Shown: positions 11,253-24,072, counted from the stretch's first letter. The stretch: 32,000 bases of DNA from Candidatus Methanophagaceae archaeon (GCA_003194425.1 PQXB01000001.1:970444-1002443); one strand, 5' to 3'. Translations and numbers: made by a program. Notes: generated from the sequence alone by a model not told the origin.

Positions 11253-11770
11253 TCAAAAAAAATAAAAAACCAGTGAGACCGCAGGCGAGAACCTCTGCAT
11301 CTTTTTGCCTGTTGTTCCTCCGAGATGGTTGTTGTTCGCTTCGTACAGTTCGATGTTCGCTCGCATGTAGGGCGAAGGAAGATTCGTCACCGCTACTTTC
11401 AAGACGCCTGTCTTCGTCAGGTTCACCTTGAACCAGTCGTGGTCGCCAGCGCCGAAGATGTAGGGTTTTAGTGCCGTGCCAGTGCCGTGCCGAGAGCGAT
11501 TTCCTTCGCGCCTGCGAAATCGCCGTTCGGCTCGTATTCGTCGGGAACTTCGTCCTGCGTTAGTGTTAGCGTGTACGTCGTTGTGTAACTTCCGCCTGCG
11601 TAGTCGCGGATTCGGAAGTAGTAGTCGCCGGGCGTGACAACATCGTAAGAGACCGCTTTGTCTGCGCCCGTGTCGCCCGTCACACCCGTGAGGTAGTTGT
11701 TGTTCGCGCCGTAAATCTCGACCTCCGCGCGCATTGACGCGGGGATATTTGTTACTACATAAATTGTTGT
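11253..11770 (-). pseudogene. Remnant of a secreted protein with pre-peptidase C-terminal (PPC)-type domains; 5'-truncated, frameshifted and 3'-degenerate
   Basis: The 88-aa ORF (11468-11734) reads ..MRAEVEIYGANNNYLTG...GDYYFRIRDYAGGSYTTTYTLTLTQ..EYEPNGDFAGAKEIALG. My translation of the next frame downstream gives KPYIFGAGDHDWFKVNLTKTGVLKVAVTNLPSPYMRANIELYEANNNHLGG, a second PPC-like repeat. In-frame sequence upstream of the Met (TTIYVVTNIPAS) stops at a TAA, so the first domain lacks its start. Confidence 0.6.
11470..11491. repeat. 11-bp tandem duplication agtgccgtgcc x2 (frameshifting)
   Basis: Copies at 11470-11480 and 11481-11491 are identical. Deleting one copy joins ..AKEIALGTAL to KPYIFGAGDHDWFKV.. 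in a single frame. Confidence 0.9.
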
Positions 11771-11796
11771 GTCTCTTTAAATACTTACCTCGTTTA

Positions 11797-11834
11797 ATAT
11801 TTACCTCTTCTATATTTACCTCTTCTTTACCTCT
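11797..11834. repeat. Intergenic 15-bp tandem repeat atatttacctcttct x2.5
   Basis: Units at 11797-11811 and 11812-11826 are identical. 11827-11834 is partial. Lies between the DUF373 stop (11841) and the PPC remnant. Confidence 0.9.
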
Positions 11835-11840
11835 AAAAAT

Positions 11841-12974
11841 TCAAGATTCTTTCCCCTCCCCTTTGCTCATCGTGCTTCTCTCCTTCAAATACAACGAAAT
11901 CCTAACGCCTACAAGCGAAAGAACGGTCGCACCGAGCAGCGAGAAGAAGAGGAACTGGTAGCCCATCGGGTAGTTGCCCTCGCTCAGCAGAATTATGCAC
12001 TCGCTGCCGCCCCACACAATCAAACCCGAGGCGACGACCGAGAACAAAATCGCCCACTGCCGAACGATTCTCTCCCGCTCAATCAACATATTCAGCATCT
12101 TCCCCACCAGAGGAGCGAGCGCCGCACCCACGTACCACCCGACCGCACCCCTGGCAAAATAGACAAGACCCAACAAAATCCGCTCGCCAGACTCGGCGGT
12201 AGGCAGTTTCGTGTACTCTGTAATGCCTTGAGATGTACCTGCCAGAAGAAGCACGACCGCACAAATGTAGGTTACGAGCGAGATTTTACCGCTGTAAATC
12301 GACTGCCTCACGGTCTCAAGAAACTCCATCATTAGATTCTCAAGCCCAAAGCTCTTGAGCAGCAGGTAAATCCCGACGAACCCGAAGATCAGCCCCACCG
12401 CCCAGCCCGGCTGCCCAACCAAGAGCGAAATGAAGAGGGAAATGAAAATAAGACCCAGAGGTGTCAAGAATGTGTGAGCGAACTTCGGGTCCTCAAGCAA
12501 TTTCTTTACGACATAAAAACTGCTTTCCAACGGCTCGCTCTGCCTCACTACAACTCTCCGCACAGCGTCTATTTTCACCCGCGACTGCAGAATTGGAAGA
12601 ATGCTCTCGTCCTCTGCACCGTCGCTCACCAAAATCGCAGTCTCTGCACCGGTCTTTGAGAGAACCTTGTCCAACTCCCGCCCGACTTTACGGTCCGCCT
12701 CAACTCCAAGATTCTTCTCGCCCGCGACCAACGCGATTTCCACATCGTCCGCTCCCGCTCCGTTCCCTTCACCTTTCAACCACTCGTAAATCCGAACCGC
12801 CGCAAAAATCGCATTTACATCCGAGTCCTCGGCGTCCGCAAGCCCCAGCTTCGTCGCTGCCGAGAGGCTCGCTGCCCTGCCCACGACCGGCGTCTGCAAG
12901 CCCGCTTTCTCTCCGATGTCGTCGTCCCGGTCTACGCAGAGGACAAGCGTCCCTCCCCTCTCCCTTCTACTCAT
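11841..12974 (-). CDS. Archaeal DUF373-family integral membrane protein
   Basis: 377 aa. The N-terminal soluble domain LVLCVDRDDDIGEKAGLQTPVVGR...LGLADAEDSDVNAIFAAVRIYEWL matches my memory of DUF373. It is followed by about 6 TM helices. The start overlaps the purF stop by 8 nt. Confidence 0.55.
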   Translation of the reverse strand: MSRRERGGTLVLCVDRDDDIGEKAGLQTPVVGRAASLSAATKLGLADAEDSDVNAIFAAVRIYEWLKGEGNGAGADDVEIALVAGEKNLGVEADRKVGRELDKVLSKTGAETAILVSDGAEDESILPILQSRVKIDAVRRVVVRQSEPLESSFYVVKKLLEDPKFAHTFLTPLGLIFISLFISLLVGQPGWAVGLIFGFVGIYLLLKSFGLENLMMEFLETVRQSIYSGKISLVTYICAVVLLLAGTSQGITEYTKLPTAESGERILLGLVYFARGAVGWYVGAALAPLVGKMLNMLIERERIVRQWAILFSVVASGLIVWGGSECIILLSEGNYPMGYQFLFFSLLGATVLSLVGVRISLYLKERSTMSKGEGKES

Positions 12975-14643
12975 TTTTTACCCTTACCTTACTTTCACAG
13001 TCTACCTTACTTTCACAGTCCTCGCCTGGAATTTCAACAGGGTACTTCCCAGTCAGACAGCCGAGACAGAGGTTCTCCGCCGCAATTCCCACCGAATCCA
13101 CCAGCCCCGCCAGGCTGAGGTAGCCAACCGAATCCGCGTTTAGAAACTCGCAAATCTCTGCCAAATTCCGCCCTGACGCCAGCAACTCCGACCGCGTCGG
13201 CGTGTTAATGCCGAGGTAGCAGGGAGCAATTATCGGCGGGCTTCCGATTCTTATGTGCACTTCCTTCGCCCCTTTCTTCTTCAGGTTCGCCACAATTCGC
13301 CTTGAAGTCGTCCCTCTCACGACGCTGTCGTCCACCAGAACCACCCGTTTCCCCTTCACATTCTCCTGCACGACATTTAACTTCAGCCGCACCGCCGTGT
13401 CCCGCGACGCCTTCTCGGGCATTATAAAAGTCCGCCCCACGTACCTGTTTTTCATAAGCCCCTCTTTGTAGTCGAGCCCTGCCCGCTTTGCGTAGCCGAT
13501 TGCGAAAGTAATTCCAGAATCCGGCACCGGCGAGACAATGTCCGCCCCCTGCACGCCGCAGCCACCGCCACAGCCGCAGCCACCGCCACAGCCGCAGCCA
13601 CTGCTACCGCCACTGCTACCGCTACTGCTACCGCCACTGCTACCGCCACACACCACCCCTTCCTCTTCCGCCAGCCGCTCGCCGATTTTCATCCGCACAT
13701 CGTAGACTAACCGCCCGTCCAAGACCGAGTCCGCCCTCGCGAAATAAATGTATTCAAAGACGCAGTGAGCCGTGTTCTTCCCGCGGCACAACTGGTAACT
13801 TTCTAAACCTACTCCGCCCCCTTTCCCTCCTCCTCCTTTTCCTCCTCTCCCCTTTCCTCTCGCCACTAACACCTCCCCTGGTCTCACATCTCTCACCAAC
13901 TCGCCGTCTAACAGGTCAATCGCGGGACTTTCCGACGCAATTATGTACCCGTCCTCTGTCTCGCCAAGGCACAGCGGTTTAATGCCCAACGGGTCTCTAA
14001 CCGCGATTAAAGTCCCGTCCAGCAAAATAACCAACGAATAAGACCCTACAACACGAGTCATCACTTTTTTAAGCGCCTCTACCGGGTCGTTCCTCGCCTG
14101 CTGCCCTGCCTGCTGCTGCCCTGCCTGCTGCTGCCCTGCCTGCTGCTGCCCTGCCAGTTCCTTCGCGAGCAGCTGTGCCACCACTTCGGTGTCGGTCTCG
14201 GAATGAAAAATTCTGCCTTCCTTTTTTAATTCTTCTCGCAGCTCCGCGGTGTTTACGAGGTTGCCGTTGTGTGCGATTGCGAATTTCCCGCCACGGTAGT
14301 TCACGAGCAGCGGCTCGGAATTCTCTACATTTGACGCCCCTGTCGTCGAATATCTGACATGCCCAATCCCGAGGTTACCCTTCCCTCGCAGCGAATCTAA
14401 GCGTTGGCGGTCGAAGACCTCGTAAACAAATCCCATTCCCCTCTCCAGTTTTATTTTATTCCCCTCTTTTCTCTTTCCCTGCTCGGCACTCGTGCTCGTG
14501 CTCTCACTTACTGCGATGCCCGCGGATTCCTGACCCCTGTGTTGCAGAGCGTAGAGGGCGTAAAAAGTCGGTAGAGCAGCGTTTCCCTGCCCTTGGGCTA
14601 AAGCCACGCCAACTATTCCGCAGCTTTCTCTTTGGTCTTTCAT
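12967..14643 (-). CDS. purF: Amidophosphoribosyltransferase (glutamine-PRPP amidotransferase) with multiple low-complexity inserts
   Basis: Ntn-type CGIVGV, HVRYSTTG, HNGNLVN, SETDTEV, PVPDSG, the PRPP loop VVLVDDSVVRGTTS and RIGSPPIIAPCYLGI. I place the start at the ATG at 14643 (MKDQRESCGIVG). The TTG start at 14664 in the ORF track lies inside an 11-bp non-coding-type repeat. Confidence 0.9.
   Translation of the reverse strand: MKDQRESCGIVGVALAQGQGNAALPTFYALYALQHRGQESAGIAVSESTSTSAEQGKRKEGNKIKLERGMGFVYEVFDRQRLDSLRGKGNLGIGHVRYSTTGASNVENSEPLLVNYRGGKFAIAHNGNLVNTAELREELKKEGRIFHSETDTEVVAQLLAKELAGQQQAGQQQAGQQQAGQQARNDPVEALKKVMTRVVGSYSLVILLDGTLIAVRDPLGIKPLCLGETEDGYIIASESPAIDLLDGELVRDVRPGEVLVARGKGRGGKGGGGKGGGVGLESYQLCRGKNTAHCVFEYIYFARADSVLDGRLVYDVRMKIGERLAEEEGVVCGGSSGGSSSGSSGGSSGCGCGGGCGCGGGCGVQGADIVSPVPDSGITFAIGYAKRAGLDYKEGLMKNRYVGRTFIMPEKASRDTAVRLKLNVVQENVKGKRVVLVDDSVVRGTTSRRIVANLKKKGAKEVHIRIGSPPIIAPCYLGINTPTRSELLASGRNLAEICEFLNADSVGYLSLAGLVDSVGIAAENLCLGCLTGKYPVEIPGEDCESKVDCESKVRVKNE
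12985..13020. repeat. 18-bp tandem repeat taccttactttcacagtc x2; encodes (DCESKV)2 in the purF C-terminal extension
   Basis: Units at 12985-13002 and 13003-13020 are identical. Confidence 0.95.
13558..13647. repeat. Composite GC-rich tandem repeats inside purF: 18-bp gcagccaccgccacagcc x2, then 12-bp actgctaccgcc x4
   Basis: 18-bp units at 13558-13575 and 13576-13593. 12-bp units at 13600-13611, 13612-13623 (1 mismatch), 13624-13635 and 13636-13647. They encode GGSSGGSSSGSSGGSSGCGCGGGCGCGGGCG. Confidence 0.9.
14096..14155. repeat. 15-bp tandem repeat gcctgctgctgccct x3 plus one 12-bp shortened copy; encodes (AGQQQ)n in purF
   Basis: 14096-14107 is a 12-bp variant. Units at 14108-14122, 14123-14137 and 14138-14152 are identical. 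Confidence 0.95.
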
Positions 14644-19450: not shown

Positions 19451-21397
19451 ATGGAAGAATACAAATGGTTTCTGAAGGACGAAGTAGTTGAGACAGGGCT
19501 GTGCACGTTCTGCGGTGCGTGCAGTGCGGTCTGTCCGAACGACCGAATTGAGTTCAGGGAAGACGGACCTGCACTGAAAACCGAGTGTCCGAGGAACGGG
19601 CAGGGTGCCTGTAAGGACGTGTGCCAGCGGGTGGTGACCTTTGCGTCAAAAATCGGTCCGAATGTCTTCGGGTTCAAAGCAAAACCGCCAACAAGTCTGC
19701 TCGGGCAGTACGAGACGGCTGTCTCTGCCCGCGCGACCGACGCTGCAATTCGAGAAGCGGGTCAGGACGGCGGTGCGGTCACGGCTCTGCTGACTTACTG
19801 CTTTGACGAGAGGCTTGTAGACGGCGTGGTTGCAACAGGCGACGCAGGAAAGCCGAGTTCTCGCGTTGTTCGGTCAAAGTCGGAACTGCTTGAAACCGCG
19901 GGGTCAAAGTATTCGACGGTTCCCGTCCTCTCCGCGGTCAAGGAAGCAGGGGCAGAGGGCGTAACGAACGCTGCGGTCGTCGGGCTGCCGTGCCACGTTT
20001 ACGGAGTTCGGAAGACGCAGTTCTTCCCTGGGCTGACCGCACACGGCTACGAGGTCGGCGAGAAAGGAGAGCGAGTAAAAATCCCGAAAATCGCTCTCGT
20101 CGTCGGCTTGTTCTGTACCGAGAACTTCAACTACGAGAAACTGACCAAATTCTTTGCAGAGAGCGGAGTGGAGATTTCAAAGGTCAGAAAAGCCGTCGTG
20201 CACCTCGACGAACTTGTCGTAACGGCGGAGACCGAAGAGGGGGGAACAGCCACTTACGAGTTCGACCTCAACGCCCTCTGGAACGCCGGCTGCGTTCACG
20301 ACGGCTGCGTAATTTGCAGGGACGCGGTCTCAAAACTCGCCGACATCTCCGCGGGCTACATGGGCTCGAGCAAAGGCTGGACAACGCTTTTAGGCAGAAC
20401 TGCGAAGGGCGTTGAAGTGCTCAAGGCTGCGGAGGAGGCAGGCTACATTGAGACGAAGCCGGATGTGGAGCTTCACAGGATCGAAGAGTTCGCAAGTCTT
20501 AAAATGCAGCGGTTCAACTGGGAACTGAAGCGGCGGCTTGACGCGGGCGAGAAAGTCAAGTTCTACTGGGCGTCCGACTACCCTGGCGTCGTGGGCGAGA
20601 CCAAAGGCACATTTTATGTCAAGATAAAGACCAACTCAGGGCTCACGAACGCGGAGACGCTCGTAAAAGCCGCGGAACTCGCTAAGAAATACGGCGACGG
20701 CTCGCTCGAACTCACAACACGCCAGAGCCTTGAGATTCAGGGCGTTCCTGGCACGAAGGTGGACAAACTGATGGCAGAACTCTACGCCAGTGGGCTTGCA
20801 ACGATCGGAATGGGCTACGTCACAACCTGCGTTGGCTCTGACTACTGCACTGAAGGGCTCGTTGAGACGAAGAAACTTGCAGGAGAACTCACAGCAGAGT
20901 TCGCACAGAGGCTGACGCCACACAAGATAAAAATCAGCATCTCGGGCTGTCCGAACGCGTGCAGCAGACCAACGCGTCACGACATCGGGCTCGTGGGTCA
21001 GGTTCGTCCAGAGGTGGACGAAGAGAAGTGCAACGGCTGCGGACGGTGTGCAGAACTGTGCAGGGTGGACGCGATTTCGATTGTGCTTGGTAAGGCTGTA
21101 ATTGACCGAGACAAGTGTGTCGGCTGCGGCTGGTGCGTGAGGGGCTGTCCGAACGAGGCGGTGGTTGAGCTGGAGCGAGGTTACTCAATGTGGATTGGAG
21201 GCAACGACGCACGACGACCTGCCGAAGGGATTTTGTTGAAGTCGTTCTGCACGAGGGAGGAGATTCCGGGGTTGGTTGACGCGGTTGCGAAGACGCTCGT
21301 TAAGTACAAGACAAAACCTGGTCGTGAGCGGCTTGGAAATGTGATGAAGCAGGTCGGTGTGGGGAAGTTCGTTAATGAGGTGCTGGATTTGGCGTAG
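19451..21397 (+). CDS. fsr: Coenzyme F420-dependent sulfite reductase (Fsr-type fusion: FrhB/FpoF-like F420H2 dehydrogenase N-half plus siroheme sulfite/nitrite reductase C-half)
   Basis: 648 aa. The N-half has CTFCGACSAVCPN, GQDGGAVTALL and VVGLPCHVYGVRK (FrhB family). The C-half has TTRQSLEIQGV, the siroheme-[4Fe-4S] coupling cysteines TCVGSDYC (Cx5C) and GCPNAC (Cx3C), and the ferredoxin motifs CNGCGRCAELC and CVGCGWCVRGCP. Architecture and size match Fsr of methanogens/ANME. Confidence 0.75.
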   Translation: MEEYKWFLKDEVVETGLCTFCGACSAVCPNDRIEFREDGPALKTECPRNGQGACKDVCQRVVTFASKIGPNVFGFKAKPPTSLLGQYETAVSARATDAAIREAGQDGGAVTALLTYCFDERLVDGVVATGDAGKPSSRVVRSKSELLETAGSKYSTVPVLSAVKEAGAEGVTNAAVVGLPCHVYGVRKTQFFPGLTAHGYEVGEKGERVKIPKIALVVGLFCTENFNYEKLTKFFAESGVEISKVRKAVVHLDELVVTAETEEGGTATYEFDLNALWNAGCVHDGCVICRDAVSKLADISAGYMGSSKGWTTLLGRTAKGVEVLKAAEEAGYIETKPDVELHRIEEFASLKMQRFNWELKRRLDAGEKVKFYWASDYPGVVGETKGTFYVKIKTNSGLTNAETLVKAAELAKKYGDGSLELTTRQSLEIQGVPGTKVDKLMAELYASGLATIGMGYVTTCVGSDYCTEGLVETKKLAGELTAEFAQRLTPHKIKISISGCPNACSRPTRHDIGLVGQVRPEVDEEKCNGCGRCAELCRVDAISIVLGKAVIDRDKCVGCGWCVRGCPNEAVVELERGYSMWIGGNDARRPAEGILLKSFCTREEIPGLVDAVAKTLVKYKTKPGRERLGNVMKQVGVGKFVNEVLDLA

Positions 21398-21406
21398 TTA
21401 GCTAAG

Positions 21407-21682
21407 TCACCGCCGTCCCAACAGTTCGTTCCACCGCTGCTTGAGGTCGTCCACTGCAGAGACCGCCTTCACCCCCGGCACCTTCTCTTTCAGCGTCGCT
21501 TCAACGAAGTTCGTCAGCGTGTACTGGCTCATCGGGCAGCCCGCACACGCACCGCTCAACTTTACCTTCACCACGCCGTCCTCCTCCACGCTCACCAGTT
21601 CAATGCTCCCGCCTTCCAACGCCAGCAGCGGTCGAATCTCTTTCTCAATTACTTCTTCTATTTTTTCCTGATTTTCCTGCAT
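21407..21682 (-). CDS. NifU C-terminal-domain (Nfu-like) Fe-S cluster scaffold/carrier protein
   Basis: 91 aa from the ATG at 21682: MQENQEKIEEVIEKEIRPLLALEGGSIELVSVEEDGVVKVKLSGACAGCPMS.., with the Nfu CxxC motif. The longer ORF in the track (to 21997) overlaps the opposite-strand gene and is low complexity. Confidence 0.8.
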   Translation of the reverse strand: MQENQEKIEEVIEKEIRPLLALEGGSIELVSVEEDGVVKVKLSGACAGCPMSQYTLTNFVEATLKEKVPGVKAVSAVDDLKQRWNELLGRR

Positions 21683-21720
21683 TTTTCCTTTTATTTTTTT
21701 TAAATGTTCTCTTAAAAAGA

Positions 21721-22929
21721 ATGAAAAAATTTTCCGTCTCCCTCGTCCTTTTTGTCTTCCTCGCCGTCGCCCCTCTTGCATGTGCCGGAGCAGAAAGCCA
21801 GCAGGCAGAAAGCCAGCAGGCAGAAAGCCAGCAGGAGCAGGTGTCTCTTTATTATTTCTACGCAGAGGACTGCTCGCACTGTAAAAAAGTCGCACCTCTG
21901 CTGGAAGAACTTGAGGCGAAGTTCCCGGAGCTTGAAGTCCGCAGGTTTGACCTCTCCTACAACGAGAACAACGCAACGAAGACAACGAAGAACACAAAGA
22001 GCAGCAGCGAACTCTTTAACGCTTTTATTCAGACTTACAACCCGCCAGCAGTCGAAATCCCCGCGGTCTTCGTCGGCAACAAGTCCTTGATTGGACGCGG
22101 GCTGACAAGAGAGAGGCTCGAGGCGGAGGTAGAGTTCTGCTTGCGGAACGGGTGCCCTGACCCGCTCGCACTTGTGAAAGGAGAGGCAGAGGGAGTCACA
22201 GAGGGAGTTGGAGGCAGAGGTGGAGGCGGAGGCGGAGAAGAGGGAGAAGAGGACAAGTCGCCGCTACTTTTAATGCTCGTTGGAACGGCGTTAGTCGAGG
22301 GGCTCAACCCTTGCGGTTTTGCGGTTCTGATTTTTTTGCTCGCCTCTCTTCTCTCCTTGAGGACGAGGAGAAGCGTTCTCGGCGTGGGCTTGGCGTTCGT
22401 CGCGAGCGTCGTCGCCACGCACTTCTTCGTCGGGCTCGGTCTTGTGGGCTGCTACCTCTTCTCGGCGGGCACAACGACCCTCGTTAGACGGTTAGTAATT
22501 TTCGTGGCTCTCTCGGCGGGAGTTCTGAACCTGCACGACTTTTGGCGAGACAAGGCGACTTTAGCCGTTCCGAGCGTTCTGAAACCAGGAATTGCAAGAC
22601 TCGCAGGCTACGCGTCTGTGCCCTGTGCCGTTCTCTTGGGCTTCTTTGCCACGATGGCGGGACTTCCGTGCACGGGCTGCATTTACCTTACCGTGCTGGG
22701 GCTGCTCGCCGCCGAGCCGGCAGCGTCAGCCTTAAAGACCGTTCTTTACCTCCTGCTCTACAACTTCTTCTACGCTCTGCCCCTCCTCCTAATTCTCGCC
22801 CTAATTTACAGGGGGACTTCGCCAGAGGAGGTGGAGGCGTGGAGGAAGGGGAAGCGGCGGTTTATGAAACTCGCCGGTGGTCTCGTGCTGCTTGGATTTG
22901 GCACTGCAATGCTTCTTGGTCTTGTTTAG
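21721..22929 (+). CDS. Thioredoxin-fold domain fused to a DsbD/CcdA-family transmembrane thiol-disulfide electron transporter
   Basis: Signal peptide MKKFSVSLVLFVFLAVAPLACAGA. Trx-like VSLYYFYAEDCSHCKKVAPLLEELE (CxxC). The membrane domain has the conserved Pro-Cys motifs LNPCGFAVLIFLL and GLPCTGCIYL, as in CcdA/DsbD. It contains an AESQQ x3 repeat and a Gly/Glu-rich linker. Confidence 0.75.
   Translation: MKKFSVSLVLFVFLAVAPLACAGAESQQAESQQAESQQEQVSLYYFYAEDCSHCKKVAPLLEELEAKFPELEVRRFDLSYNENNATKTTKNTKSSSELFNAFIQTYNPPAVEIPAVFVGNKSLIGRGLTRERLEAEVEFCLRNGCPDPLALVKGEAEGVTEGVGGRGGGGGGEEGEEDKSPLLLMLVGTALVEGLNPCGFAVLIFLLASLLSLRTRRSVLGVGLAFVASVVATHFFVGLGLVGCYLFSAGTTTLVRRLVIFVALSAGVLNLHDFWRDKATLAVPSVLKPGIARLAGYASVPCAVLLGFFATMAGLPCTGCIYLTVLGLLAAEPAASALKTVLYLLLYNFFYALPLLLILALIYRGTSPEEVEAWRKGKRRFMKLAGGLVLLGFGTAMLLGLV
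21790..21834. repeat. 15-bp tandem repeat gcagaaagccagcag x3, in frame (AESQQ)3 directly after the signal peptide
   Basis: Units at 21790-21804, 21805-21819 and 21820-21834 are identical. Confidence 0.95.
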
Positions 22930-22930
22930 C

Positions 22931-23881
22931 TTAGCCTCTCCTCCTGCTGTTCCTCCTGCTCTTGCTCTTTCCCTTCCTCAGCCAAAAAACAACGGCAAGC
23001 AGACCTGCAACTGCAAGAACCGCTTCAAACCCTGGCTGCTCCGTGCCTGAAGTCGCGTCAGAGTCAGAGACGACCTCAAAACCGCTCTCCTGCCACGCGT
23101 TCATTCCGCCAAACACGTTGTAAATCTGGTCAAAGTCCTGCTCCACAAGAATTTCACAGGCTCTGCTGCTGTTCCGACCGTCTTCGCTGAAGACCACGAT
23201 TTTCTTGCTCTTCTCCAACTCTGCTGCTCTGTTGCTCAACTCTGCGAGAGGAATTGAAGTGGCGCCCTTTAAATGCCCCGCCTTGAATTCTGCGTTGGGT
23301 CTCACGTCGAGTAGAACGACCTCTCCGCCGTCTCTTTGCTGCTGTTGCATTCGCTGTGCCTCGTTGACGAAGATGATTCTTACAGGGTTTCTTCGCCCGG
23401 GGCTTGAGGTAATTTCGATGCTGTGCGTTGCGTTCACGACCTCGCCCTCCGCCTCACAAACCACTGACGCGTTTATGAAGTAAGTCCCCTCGTAGATTCC
23501 TGCACACTTGGAGCAGGAGGGAAGAGTTCTTGAGAAGGTCACTGTGTTCTCCCCCGCGGTCAGATTCGTCTTGTTTGAGTAGGAGATGTAGTTCACGCCC
23601 CGCTTACTCCTCACGCCCGCGACTTCGATGAGGGCGTCGCTTACGTTCTCGGAAGAGTAAACGGTCAAGACGACTTTTACCGTCTCCCGCGCGCAGTACA
23701 CTTCCTTGTCGGTGGTGAAGGCGACGATTTTTACCGCGTTGTCTGTTCCCGCTACTGTTCCCGCTACCGCCGCCGCTGCTGGCGTGGGAAAAGCCGAAAG
23801 CAGCACTGTCGCCACCGCTAACACACCCACACCGATTTTCTTGCTGTTTTCCTTTCCTTGCTTCTCTTTATTTTTTTTCAT
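22931..23881 (-). CDS. Secreted rhodanese-homology-domain protein with N-terminal Ig-like domain and PGF-CTERM archaeosortase sorting signal
   Basis: Signal/TM segment KKIGVGVLAVATVLLSAFPTPAAA. Rhodanese fold VVLLDVRPNAEFKAGHLKGATSIPL...KIVVFSEDGRNSSRACEIL...GGMNAWQESGF. The C-terminus TEQPGFEAVLAVAGLLAVVFWLRKGKSKSRR is PGF plus a TM helix plus a basic tail. The active-site loop has Ser where the catalytic Cys is expected. Confidence 0.7.
   Translation of the reverse strand: MKKNKEKQGKENSKKIGVGVLAVATVLLSAFPTPAAAAVAGTVAGTDNAVKIVAFTTDKEVYCARETVKVVLTVYSSENVSDALIEVAGVRSKRGVNYISYSNKTNLTAGENTVTFSRTLPSCSKCAGIYEGTYFINASVVCEAEGEVVNATHSIEITSSPGRRNPVRIIFVNEAQRMQQQQRDGGEVVLLDVRPNAEFKAGHLKGATSIPLAELSNRAAELEKSKKIVVFSEDGRNSSRACEILVEQDFDQIYNVFGGMNAWQESGFEVVSDSDATSGTEQPGFEAVLAVAGLLAVVFWLRKGKSKSRRNSRRRG
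23743..23766. repeat. 12-bp tandem repeat ctgttcccgcta x2; encodes (VAGT)2
   Basis: Units at 23743-23754 and 23755-23766 are identical. Confidence 0.9.
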
Positions 23882-23905: not shown

Positions 23906-23937
23906 AATTTTAAATTAGTACGCTTTTAAATTAGTAC
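23906..23937. repeat. Intergenic 16-bp tandem repeat ttttaaattagtacgc x2
   Basis: Units at 23906-23921 and 23922-23937 are identical. Lies upstream of the rhodanese-like gene start (23881). Confidence 0.95.
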
Positions 23938-24072
23938 GCCAAAAAAGACAGGAGCAGAATTGATATTTTGAGATTAGTGTCAGCCGAGATTTCCGCGGCG
24001 GTTGCGAAAAATGCAGCGGCAAACGATGAAAAGGACGAAGAATTAGAGGAAGAGGAAGAATAAAAAAAGCGA

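Follow-up and report, generated by a model that had tools for sequence, protein, structure and literature searches.

A predicted DsbD-like extracytoplasmic thiol relay beside a group II Fsr-type reductase gene in an ANME-1 archaeon

The window analyzed here, a stretch of 32,000 nucleotides of DNA from Candidatus Methanophagaceae archaeon (GCA_003194425.1, PQXB01000001.1:970444-1002443), carries at positions 19451-23881 four adjacent genes. They encode a protein of the F420-dependent sulfite reductase (Fsr) type, the Fe-S carrier Nfu, an exported thioredoxin (Trx) fused to a CcdA-like membrane domain (Trx-CcdA), and an anchored surface protein with a rhodanese-homology domain. The closest protein matches of the stretch are those of named Methanophagales, the ANME-1 group of anaerobic methanotrophic (ANME) archaea, and the host genome (G000) has a size of 1.4 Mb in 5 contigs and is 92% complete. 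We consider it fairly probable that two separate things stand side by side in this locus, a free-standing group II Fsr (FsrII) and a conserved, DsbD-like extracytoplasmic thiol-disulfide relay made up of Trx-CcdA and the surface protein. The relay is previously uncharacterised, and the part of the surface protein that matters for it is an N-terminal beta-sandwich, here called the N-domain.

Results

The thioredoxin-CcdA fusion

Trx-CcdA begins with a signal peptide (residues 1-23), which is followed by a thioredoxin domain with the CxxC motif C51-S-H-C54 and by a membrane part of about six transmembrane (TM) helices, with Cys198 in TM1 (N196-P-C198) and Cys317 in TM4 (P316-C317-T-G). Cys51, Cys54, Cys198 and Cys317 are the invariant cysteines in an alignment of 28 Trx-CcdA sequences (alignment A2). 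Hydropathy and the positively charged loops agree with a cleaved signal peptide, a thioredoxin on the outside and a six-TM core with its N-terminus out. The thioredoxin domain was modelled as a thioredoxin fold with a predicted local distance difference test (pLDDT) score above 90, and the best Foldseek rows for the whole model against the PDB were thioredoxins only, with E values of 3e-3 to 2e-2 (none at or below 1e-3) and TM-scores, normalised to the target, of 0.5-0.67. Straight after the signal peptide there is a threefold AESQQ repeat (21790-21834, + strand), and at about 21960-22000 on the same strand the fusion has an Asn/Thr/Lys-rich insert, NNATKTTKNTKSS, which is missing in all 27 aligned homologues.

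The relationship of the membrane part to CcdA was seen in a profile-profile alignment. Compared by hhalign with 12 canonical CcdA sequences of ANME-1, the membrane part of A2 aligned over 191 columns, that is with the whole of CcdA, at a probability of 82.7% and an E value of 9.5e-6, and Cys198 and Cys317 came to lie in register with the SPC and TPC motifs of CcdA. The Trx-CcdA genes of the relatives are absent among the matches to the Pfam family DsbD_TM (PF02683), and a canonical CcdA of 220 aa is present in many relatives. Judging from this alignment, the membrane part is a divergent CcdA relative which lies outside PF02683 as that family is defined. At least 580 stretches in species-representative genomes encode members of the Trx-CcdA family with 30-37% identity across the full length, and their hosts include Methanoregula, DPANN archaea, Heimdallarchaeota and bacteria of the candidate phyla radiation. 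With such a wide spread the fusion as such is therefore not new, and its relatives carry Joint Genome Institute (JGI) annotations such as CcdA/glutaredoxin and "cytochrome c biogenesis protein CcdA".

The CxxC beta-sandwich of the surface protein

In an alignment of 20 N-domains (A1) the only invariant cysteines are Cys123 and Cys126, within a P-x-C-x-x-C motif, and both are kept in a larger set of 49 proteins (A4); besides glycines, these two cysteines are the only invariant residues of the domain. The model of the surface protein has a mean pLDDT of 78, with 85-95 in both of its domains, and shows residues 50-158 as a beta-sandwich of seven to eight strands whose CxxC loop connects strands 110-119 and 132-142. 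Structural matches of the N-domain, from VIA-align run with the whole surface-protein model, are generic immunoglobulin (Ig)-like folds with Z of about 12, among them a dextranase N-domain, Spo0M and RbmA.

A profile search for the N-domain in a library of 1.84 billion protein representatives yielded 537 clusters (50% identity, E <=1e-3), of which 415 reached E <=1e-10. Most cluster members are stand-alone secreted proteins of 135-150 aa, and P-x-C-x(1,2)-C is present in 137 of the top 150 clusters. The domain is rich in N-glycosylation sequons, and it is also found in a terminal position on unrelated surface proteins with beta-helix or cadherin-like parts. No consistent Pfam or NCBIfam match was obtained among the 49 N-domain proteins scanned, and the ESM Atlas gave for the N-domain hypothetical or CARDB-like leads only, all below 0.9. 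At the other end of the surface protein the PGF-CTERM sorting signal scores above the cut-offs of both models that describe it (PF18204, 30.9 bits; TIGR04126, 26.6 bits). Anchoring through this signal is plausible since archaeosortase A (ArtA, TIGR04125) is encoded in the host genome (contig C1:567847-568644; 192.7 bits, with a cut-off of 75).

Trx-CcdA and the N-domain as a conserved pair

In many relatives, which belong to four families, the gene for the surface protein is the direct and convergent neighbor of the Trx-fusion gene. In the other families of the class the neighbor of the Trx fusion is a protein of 140-175 aa that matches only residues 45-160 of the surface protein. We surveyed 79 genomes of the class: the N-domain is present in 39, the Trx fusion in 31 and both in 27. 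In 20 of these 27 genomes, again from four families, the two genes lie at most 3 kb apart on the same contig. The linkage of the pair stands out from a shuffled background, since nothing else of the window is syntenic around the pair in relatives.

More intimate arrangements were found as well. In a metagenome-assembled genome of Nanoarchaeia (L089) the N-domain and Trx-fusion genes run in one direction with an overlap of 4 bp. In another archaeon of the phylum (genome G274, contig C1, L184:412-2178, - strand) a single protein of 589 aa is a sandwich-Trx-CcdA-like fusion, in which a part of no assigned family at the N-terminus is followed by a CxxC sandwich, a thioredoxin domain (CSKC) and a CcdA-like domain; P0262 is a truncated homologue of the same design. 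The partnership of Trx-CcdA with the N-domain surface protein is thus shown by adjacency, by one operon and by natural fusions, and it is not general outside the ANME-1/Syntropharchaeia group.

The order of steps that we propose for this relay starts from a cytoplasmic thiol donor, which would reduce the Cys198/Cys317 pair of the CcdA-like membrane domain. Electrons would then pass to the CSHC motif of the thioredoxin fused to the outer N-terminus; here the architecture and topology are those described above, and the electron flow is our proposal. From there they would be handed, probably in this direction, to the invariant CxxC of the Ig-like beta-sandwich on the separate, PGF-CTERM-anchored protein, and the sandwich CxxC would finally act on a substrate at the cell surface.

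The rhodanese-homology domain

The second domain of the surface protein is a rhodanese by fold, both in its match to PF00581 (E 5e-17) and in its structural similarity to single-domain rhodaneses (VIA-align Z 15-17; 16.7 for 3gk5 and 15.8 for GlpE). Its catalytic position is changed: Ser232, in VVFSEDGRNS, stands in the alignments where 6mxv has its catalytic Cys and where paralogues in relatives have the Cys of CRSGHRS, the arginines of the loop are missing, and the loop does not read CRxGx[R/T]. Because the catalytic Cys is lost, the domain is unlikely to act as a sulfurtransferase, and it may be a binding or scaffold module.

A readable rhodanese loop was available for 28 family proteins. 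The canonical loop C-R/C-S-G-x-R-S is kept in seven of them, all from genomes for which the search gave no close orthologue of the Trx fusion (one, G003, has only a divergent copy of 34% identity), and five of six canonical-loop proteins have C-G-C, not CxxC, in their sandwich. A degenerate loop with Ser or Gly is present in 18 of the 28, and the Trx fusion is found in 17 of these 18 genomes; the remaining three proteins have an intermediate loop. A second, distinct association of rhodanese and DsbD exists in the ANME-1 lineage: on contig C13 of G014 (11343-14207) two open reading frames with rhodanese domains (304 and 335 aa) lie beside a protein of 422 aa with a bona fide DsbD_TM domain (PF02683), and DsbD_TM proteins of 440 aa resembling that of G014 are present in G004, G016 and G024.

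The Fsr-type protein and its genomic context

The first gene of the locus encodes, on a single chain, an FrhB/FpoF-like half and a sulfite/nitrite reductase half with two ferredoxin inserts, which is the build of Fsr. The Pfam order is PF04422, PF04432 (FrhB_N/C), PF03460 (NIR_SIR_ferr) and PF01077 (NIR_SIR), with two Fer4 motifs, and HMMER aligned the protein over its full length with the group I structures 7np8 (E 1e-135) and 7npa (E 1e-129). The residues of MjFsr that bind sulfite are Arg355, Arg423, Lys460 and Lys462, and group II has Lys and Gly in place of the two arginines (PMC10229431; PMC6286981). HMMER aligned Arg355 with a Lys of the window protein, whose Arg423 loop is four residues shorter and without Arg; Lys460 and Lys462 are kept, so the set of four conserved sulfite-binding residues that defines group I is incomplete (Arg355 to Lys, Arg423 absent).

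The same pattern was seen in a comparison of 56 full-length homologues. All 53 with at least 54% identity to the window protein, a set that takes in named proteins of Methanococcoides, Methanohalobium and Methanolobus, read K / IGMG----Y / K-K and have a ferredoxin motif B without the terminal Pro, and the three distant ones (34-39% identity) read R / GPLVR / CP, as in group I. Motif B is DVCQ in the window protein versus xxCP in the group-I-like sequences, and a motif B without the terminal Pro is given as an FsrII trait in PMC9295563. Identity is 60-66% to FsrII of Methanosarcinales and about 40% to group I; the closest named homologues are from Methanophagales and Methanosarcinales, and the protein sits in a tight ANME-1 sub-clade with 76-84% identity. 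By these signatures the window Fsr is a group II protein (FsrII/FNiR type), and it is probably an active enzyme, in which electrons of F420H2 would run through the FrhB-like half to the siroheme center on the cytoplasmic side. The characterised FsrII, that of ANME-2c (ANME2c-FsrII), is an F420H2-dependent nitrite reductase and cannot reduce sulfite with F420H2 (PMC9295563). The assignment of the window protein as a sulfite reductase is thus unlikely; by analogy with this one characterised enzyme, its substrate is most likely nitrite (and hydroxylamine) rather than sulfite, and it would protect Mcr.

Orthologues of this Fsr (77-82% identity) are present in four of 24 sampled genomes of the same family. 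When tblastn was run with 13 and then 25 window proteins over up to 19 kb around these four orthologues, there was no match to Nfu, the Trx fusion, the rhodanese protein, DUF2254 or IDH. Among seven sampled family genomes with Trx-CcdA one, G009, also has Fsr, on a different contig. Near the trio of Nfu, Trx-CcdA and surface protein no other window gene (IDH, DUF2254, purF, others) is syntenic in relatives, which speaks neither for nor against an insertion of Fsr into an otherwise conserved block. The neighbors of Fsr differ by genus, in agreement with Susanti and Mukhopadhyay (PMC3448663), who described the vicinity of fsr genes as not conserved. As Fsr is patchy in occurrence, never lies beside the other three genes in those relatives and has different neighbors in each genus, its position beside the thiol genes is incidental and it does not belong to a conserved module.

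In G009 (contig C16, L015:2839-6103) a hybrid-cluster protein (Hcp/prismane, E 3e-121) is encoded 38 bp upstream of the FsrII orthologue on the same strand, with a regulator of the AsnC/MarR type also upstream; these surroundings agree better with stress by nitrite, hydroxylamine or NO than with sulfur. In G023 (L013:2408-4534) and G013 (L014) a DsrE/DsrF-like protein is encoded downstream of the Fsr orthologue, together with two ATPases of the MinD/ParA type with inserted ferredoxin domains, and in G010 the neighbors are DUF22 and ornithine carbamoyltransferase. At a distance of 0.7-2.4 kb from the gene for the surface protein, G009 and G023 have FrhB/FpoF-like genes (L043:115-777 and L061:2529-3560). 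They are 33-37% identical to the N-terminal half of Fsr, weak matches that mark them as FrhB/FpoF paralogues and not Fsr, and their nearness may be coincidence.

Nfu and the layout of the locus

Nfu matches PF01106 with 93.8 bits (E 7e-27) and has its CAGC motif at residue 46. A longer reading of this gene, an open reading frame of 196 aa starting with TTG, was rejected as an over-extension, and the ATG at 21682 was taken as the start. Nfu is single-copy in the host genome and near-universal in the class. Of the 13 family genomes with the rhodanese protein, eight have Nfu at most 2 kb from the gene for that protein or from the Trx fusion, and two of the eight are without a close Trx-fusion orthologue (G015, which has none, and G003, whose divergent copy is on another contig); outside the family no such linkage to the pair was found among the class genomes surveyed. 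Since Nfu is single-copy and almost universal, its adjacency seems a matter of local gene order that was kept, more than a demonstrated functional tie, and we regard it as a housekeeping Fe-S carrier kept beside the pair within ANME-1.

All four open reading frames were confirmed at the coordinates first given for them, and an earlier note made from the sequence of the window described the single genes well. As it had stated, the Fsr-type fusion has both siroheme Cys motifs intact (Cx5C at residue 460, Cx3C at residue 500), Nfu is a carrier with the NifU C-terminal domain lying convergently downstream (9 bp between the two stop codons), a secreted thioredoxin is joined to a DsbD/CcdA-like membrane part (PF00085, signal peptide and the alignment to CcdA), and the last protein is an anchored rhodanese homologue (PF00581 and PGF-CTERM matches), though with Ser at the catalytic position. 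The strands alternate from gene to gene, so that each neighboring pair is convergent or divergent (Table 1) and the genes form at least four separate transcription units. The stop codons of Trx-CcdA and the surface protein are 1 bp apart. The divergent spacer between Nfu and Trx-CcdA measures about 145-550 bp in relatives versus 38 bp here, so the tight spacing is particular to this genome. Upstream of the surface-protein gene two copies of gcgtactaatttaaaa end 27 bp before the start codon; this repeat may be a promoter or operator of that gene's own, or a duplication of one.

Table 1. Features of the locus; positions are counted from the first nucleotide of the window.
Feature	Position	Strand	Basis
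Fsr, group II (FsrII) type by signature, 648 aa	19451-21397	+	Pfam domains, 7np8/7npa match, group II signature
Nfu, NifU C-terminal domain Fe-S carrier, 91 aa	21407-21682	-	PF01106, start codon read
AT-rich divergent intergenic region, Nfu start to Trx-CcdA start	21683-21720	.	38 bp, sequence read
Exported thioredoxin with divergent CcdA-like membrane domain, 402 aa	21721-22929	+	PF00085, alignment, hhalign, hydropathy
Surface protein (rhodanese-homology protein), 316 aa	22931-23881	-	N-terminal hydrophobic segment, beta-sandwich, rhodanese domain, PGF-CTERM
PGF-CTERM sorting signal: PGF, TM helix, basic tail	22934-23050	-	PF18204, TIGR04126
Single rhodanese-homology domain	23072-23374	-	PF00581, structural matches
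Ser232 at the catalytic Cys position	23186-23188	-	Alignment to 6mxv and paralogues
N-terminal beta-sandwich domain, residues 45-165	23387-23749	-	Alignments A1/A4, model, structural matches
Invariant Cys123-x-x-Cys126 of the beta-sandwich	23504-23515	-	Alignments A1, A4
Basic and hydrophobic N-terminus, a signal peptide or signal anchor	23762-23881	-	Hydropathy peak, residues 15-40
Perfect tandem direct repeat of 16 bp, gcgtactaatttaaaa x2, TATA-like cores	23908-23939	-	Read directly

Discussion

The earlier note had placed Fsr at the center of the locus and read all four genes as a single coupled system that deals with sulfite, polysulfide or thiosulfate from outside, with capture by the surface rhodanese, a Trx-DsbD relay, six-electron reduction by Fsr in the cytoplasm and clusters supplied by Nfu. 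Such a system is suggested by the contiguity of the four genes within 4.4 kb and by their common thiol/Fe-S theme, by the gene of a DsrE-like, sulfur-relay-type protein after Fsr in two relatives, and by the fact that fusions of rhodanese and DsbD are a recognised family (TsoB). Against it, the four relatives with Fsr do not have the other three genes nearby, so the four-gene neighborhood is not conserved, and in the family genomes with Trx-CcdA Fsr is found in one of seven and unlinked. The alternating strands, the group II placement with two sulfite-binding arginines changed, the Ser in place of the rhodanese catalytic Cys, and the fact that a CcdA relay carries electrons across the membrane, not sulfur, all speak against it as well. 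The coupled system is largely refuted by synteny, and we give it hardly any credence; the chain from surface capture over a thiol relay to cytoplasmic sulfite reduction does not hold. What stands of the note's idea is that the co-location is more than chance for Nfu, Trx-CcdA and the rhodanese protein, though not for Fsr: the pairing of the Trx-DsbD/CcdA fusion with the anchored rhodanese-like protein is conserved, and within ANME-1 Nfu is linked to them. The conserved partner on the anchored protein is the N-terminal CxxC beta-sandwich, which the note had not singled out, and not the rhodanese domain.

Two other explanations concern the pair itself. Trx-CcdA could be the thioreduction arm of cytochrome c maturation (Ccm), a fused CcdA and CcmG/ResA that keeps the CxxCH of apocytochromes reduced for the multihaem cytochromes of ANME-1, with the surface protein unrelated or another client. 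The host genome does have CcmC- and CcmF-like genes (C1:721649-722203 and C1:1120197-1120796), and as it has no PF02683 match the fusion is its only CcdA-like protein and could serve Ccm there; the name given by JGI to the homologues points the same way. Across the 79 class genomes, however, 14 have both Trx-CcdA and Ccm, 17 have Trx-CcdA only, 37 Ccm only and 11 neither, and in the genera g3 and g5 Trx-CcdA is present in 18 of 20 genomes and Ccm in two of 20. Ccm-positive relatives have the canonical CcdA of 220 aa instead, cytochrome c maturation in Methanosarcina acetivorans dispenses with both CcdA and CcmG (PMC9084895), and the adjacency and fusions with the N-domain would be left unexplained. 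A general role of Trx-CcdA in cytochrome c maturation is not supported, and we hold this explanation to be decidedly improbable. It is rather unlikely, too, that the CxxC sandwich serves as an end client or handles metals or metalloids (a surface glycoprotein whose cysteines are kept reduced, or a Cu/Hg/As site) served by a general exported thioredoxin, as in ScsB/ScsC or CcdA-Etrx-MsrAB. This would suit the large Trx-CcdA family, which mostly lacks an N-domain neighbor and so has other clients elsewhere, the occurrence of the N-domain on the ends of unrelated surface proteins, and its many sequons. The two invariant cysteines in an exposed inter-strand loop suit a reactive rather than a structural pair, however, natural fusions join the N-domain to the Trx-CcdA chain as in DsbD, and none of the 49 N-domain proteins matched a metal-binding family in Pfam or NCBIfam.

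For the preferred reading, a free-standing FsrII beside a separate DsbD-like relay, there are several points that weigh against it. The model of the Trx-CcdA membrane domain has low confidence (pLDDT 40-80), the domain is not matched by PF02683 even at E = 10, and the hhalign probability for the CcdA relationship is only 82.7%. The N-domain resembles generic Ig-like folds, and no specific similarity of the modelled domain to DsbD-alpha was seen in a list of matches dominated by rhodaneses. In seven of the 27 genomes with both genes the pair is unlinked or on different contigs, most of these seven being fragmented assemblies with the genes on different contigs. Outside the ANME-1/Syntropharchaeia group 70 of 80 Trx-fusion loci, all taken from species genomes, have no N-domain neighbor, and elsewhere in the phylum six stand-alone N-domain genes have no Trx fusion within 1.5 kb. 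The relatives are not independent and come from few genera, so the correlation of loop type with the Trx fusion may rest on two or three events. Electron flow and substrate of the relay are deduced from architecture, conservation and fusions, the substrate of FsrII is extrapolated from one ANME-2c enzyme, and a DsrE-like gene does follow Fsr in two relatives.

Fsr genes of ANME archaea are often taken as a sign of sulfite handling, and the FsrII placement together with the synteny guards against over-reading this locus. The module that is newly set apart in ANME-1 and related alkane-oxidising archaea is Trx-CcdA with a CxxC sandwich from a large family without a Pfam or NCBIfam model. A DsbD-like reducing pathway is not expected in strict anaerobes of sulfidic sediment, the module occurs independently of cytochrome c maturation, and whether it is present or absent goes with whether an active extracellular rhodanese has been lost or kept; taken together, this points to extracellular thiol or sulfane-sulfur chemistry at the ANME surface. 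It is a more distant prospect, and one we find unlikely, that the N-domain family is an archaeal counterpart of DsbD-alpha and forms the last module of a thiol reductase at the surface that Trx-CcdA drives, that in ANME-1 the relay replaced an active surface rhodanese, and that the pair processes sulfane sulfur (persulfides, polysulfide) formed at the interface with sulfate-reducing partners.

Comparison with known systems

The Fsr of the window shares with FsrII/FNiR of ANME-2c and Methanosarcinales the single-chain architecture, the change of Arg355 to Lys, the loss of Arg423, the motif B without Pro and the kept Lys460/462 (PMC9295563; PMC6286981). Unlike the characterised FNiR it comes from ANME-1, where it belongs to its own tight sub-clade of 76-84% identity and has neighbors that differ by genus, and it is known here from sequence. 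Its fold, its cofactor-binding cysteines and its end-to-end alignment are those of group I Fsr (Methanocaldococcus jannaschii, 7NPA; Methanothermococcus thermolithotrophicus, 7NP8). With about 40% identity, two of the four sulfite-binding residues changed and a loop four residues shorter, it is therefore not to be filed as a sulfite-detoxifying Fsr.

The rhodanese domain has the fold of GlpE and PspE, and of inactive rhodanese-homology domains such as Anabaena Alr3790 (PDB 2kl3), with Z of 15-17, and domains of the Alr3790 type also lack the Cys. It differs from GlpE and PspE in its Ser232, in the missing loop arginines, in its predicted extracellular position behind a CxxC sandwich and in the PGF-CTERM lipid anchor.

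As for the relay, a six-TM CcdA core and a membrane-tethered extracellular thioredoxin that serves a surface client are also found in CcdA-ResA/CcmG and in CcdA1/2-Etrx1/2-MsrAB2, the latter a system of Streptococcus pneumoniae. In the window, unlike in these, thioredoxin and CcdA are joined in one covalent chain, a CxxC beta-sandwich would be the client, and there is no link to Ccm. The comparison with DsbD goes further. In E. coli DsbD the order of parts and the membrane core differ: the archaeal relay has Trx-membrane with the sandwich on a separate protein (sandwich-Trx-membrane when fused), and a core of 6 TM, not 8, unmatched by PF02683. The Cys pair of DsbD-alpha is Cys103/Cys109, whereas the pair of the relay sandwich is a CxxC, and no homology of this sandwich to DsbD-alpha was seen among the structural matches, in which rhodaneses dominated. 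We know of no clients of the DsbC/DsbG type in the host, which is a strict anaerobe. An extracytoplasmic thiol relay joined to an anchored rhodanese-like protein is nonetheless supported as a variant of the DsbD type: as in E. coli DsbD and ScsB, an Ig-like sandwich, a CcdA-type core with cysteines in TM1 and TM4 and an exported thioredoxin each carry a Cys pair, and in one archaeon (L184) the three types of module are, as in DsbD, found on a single chain.

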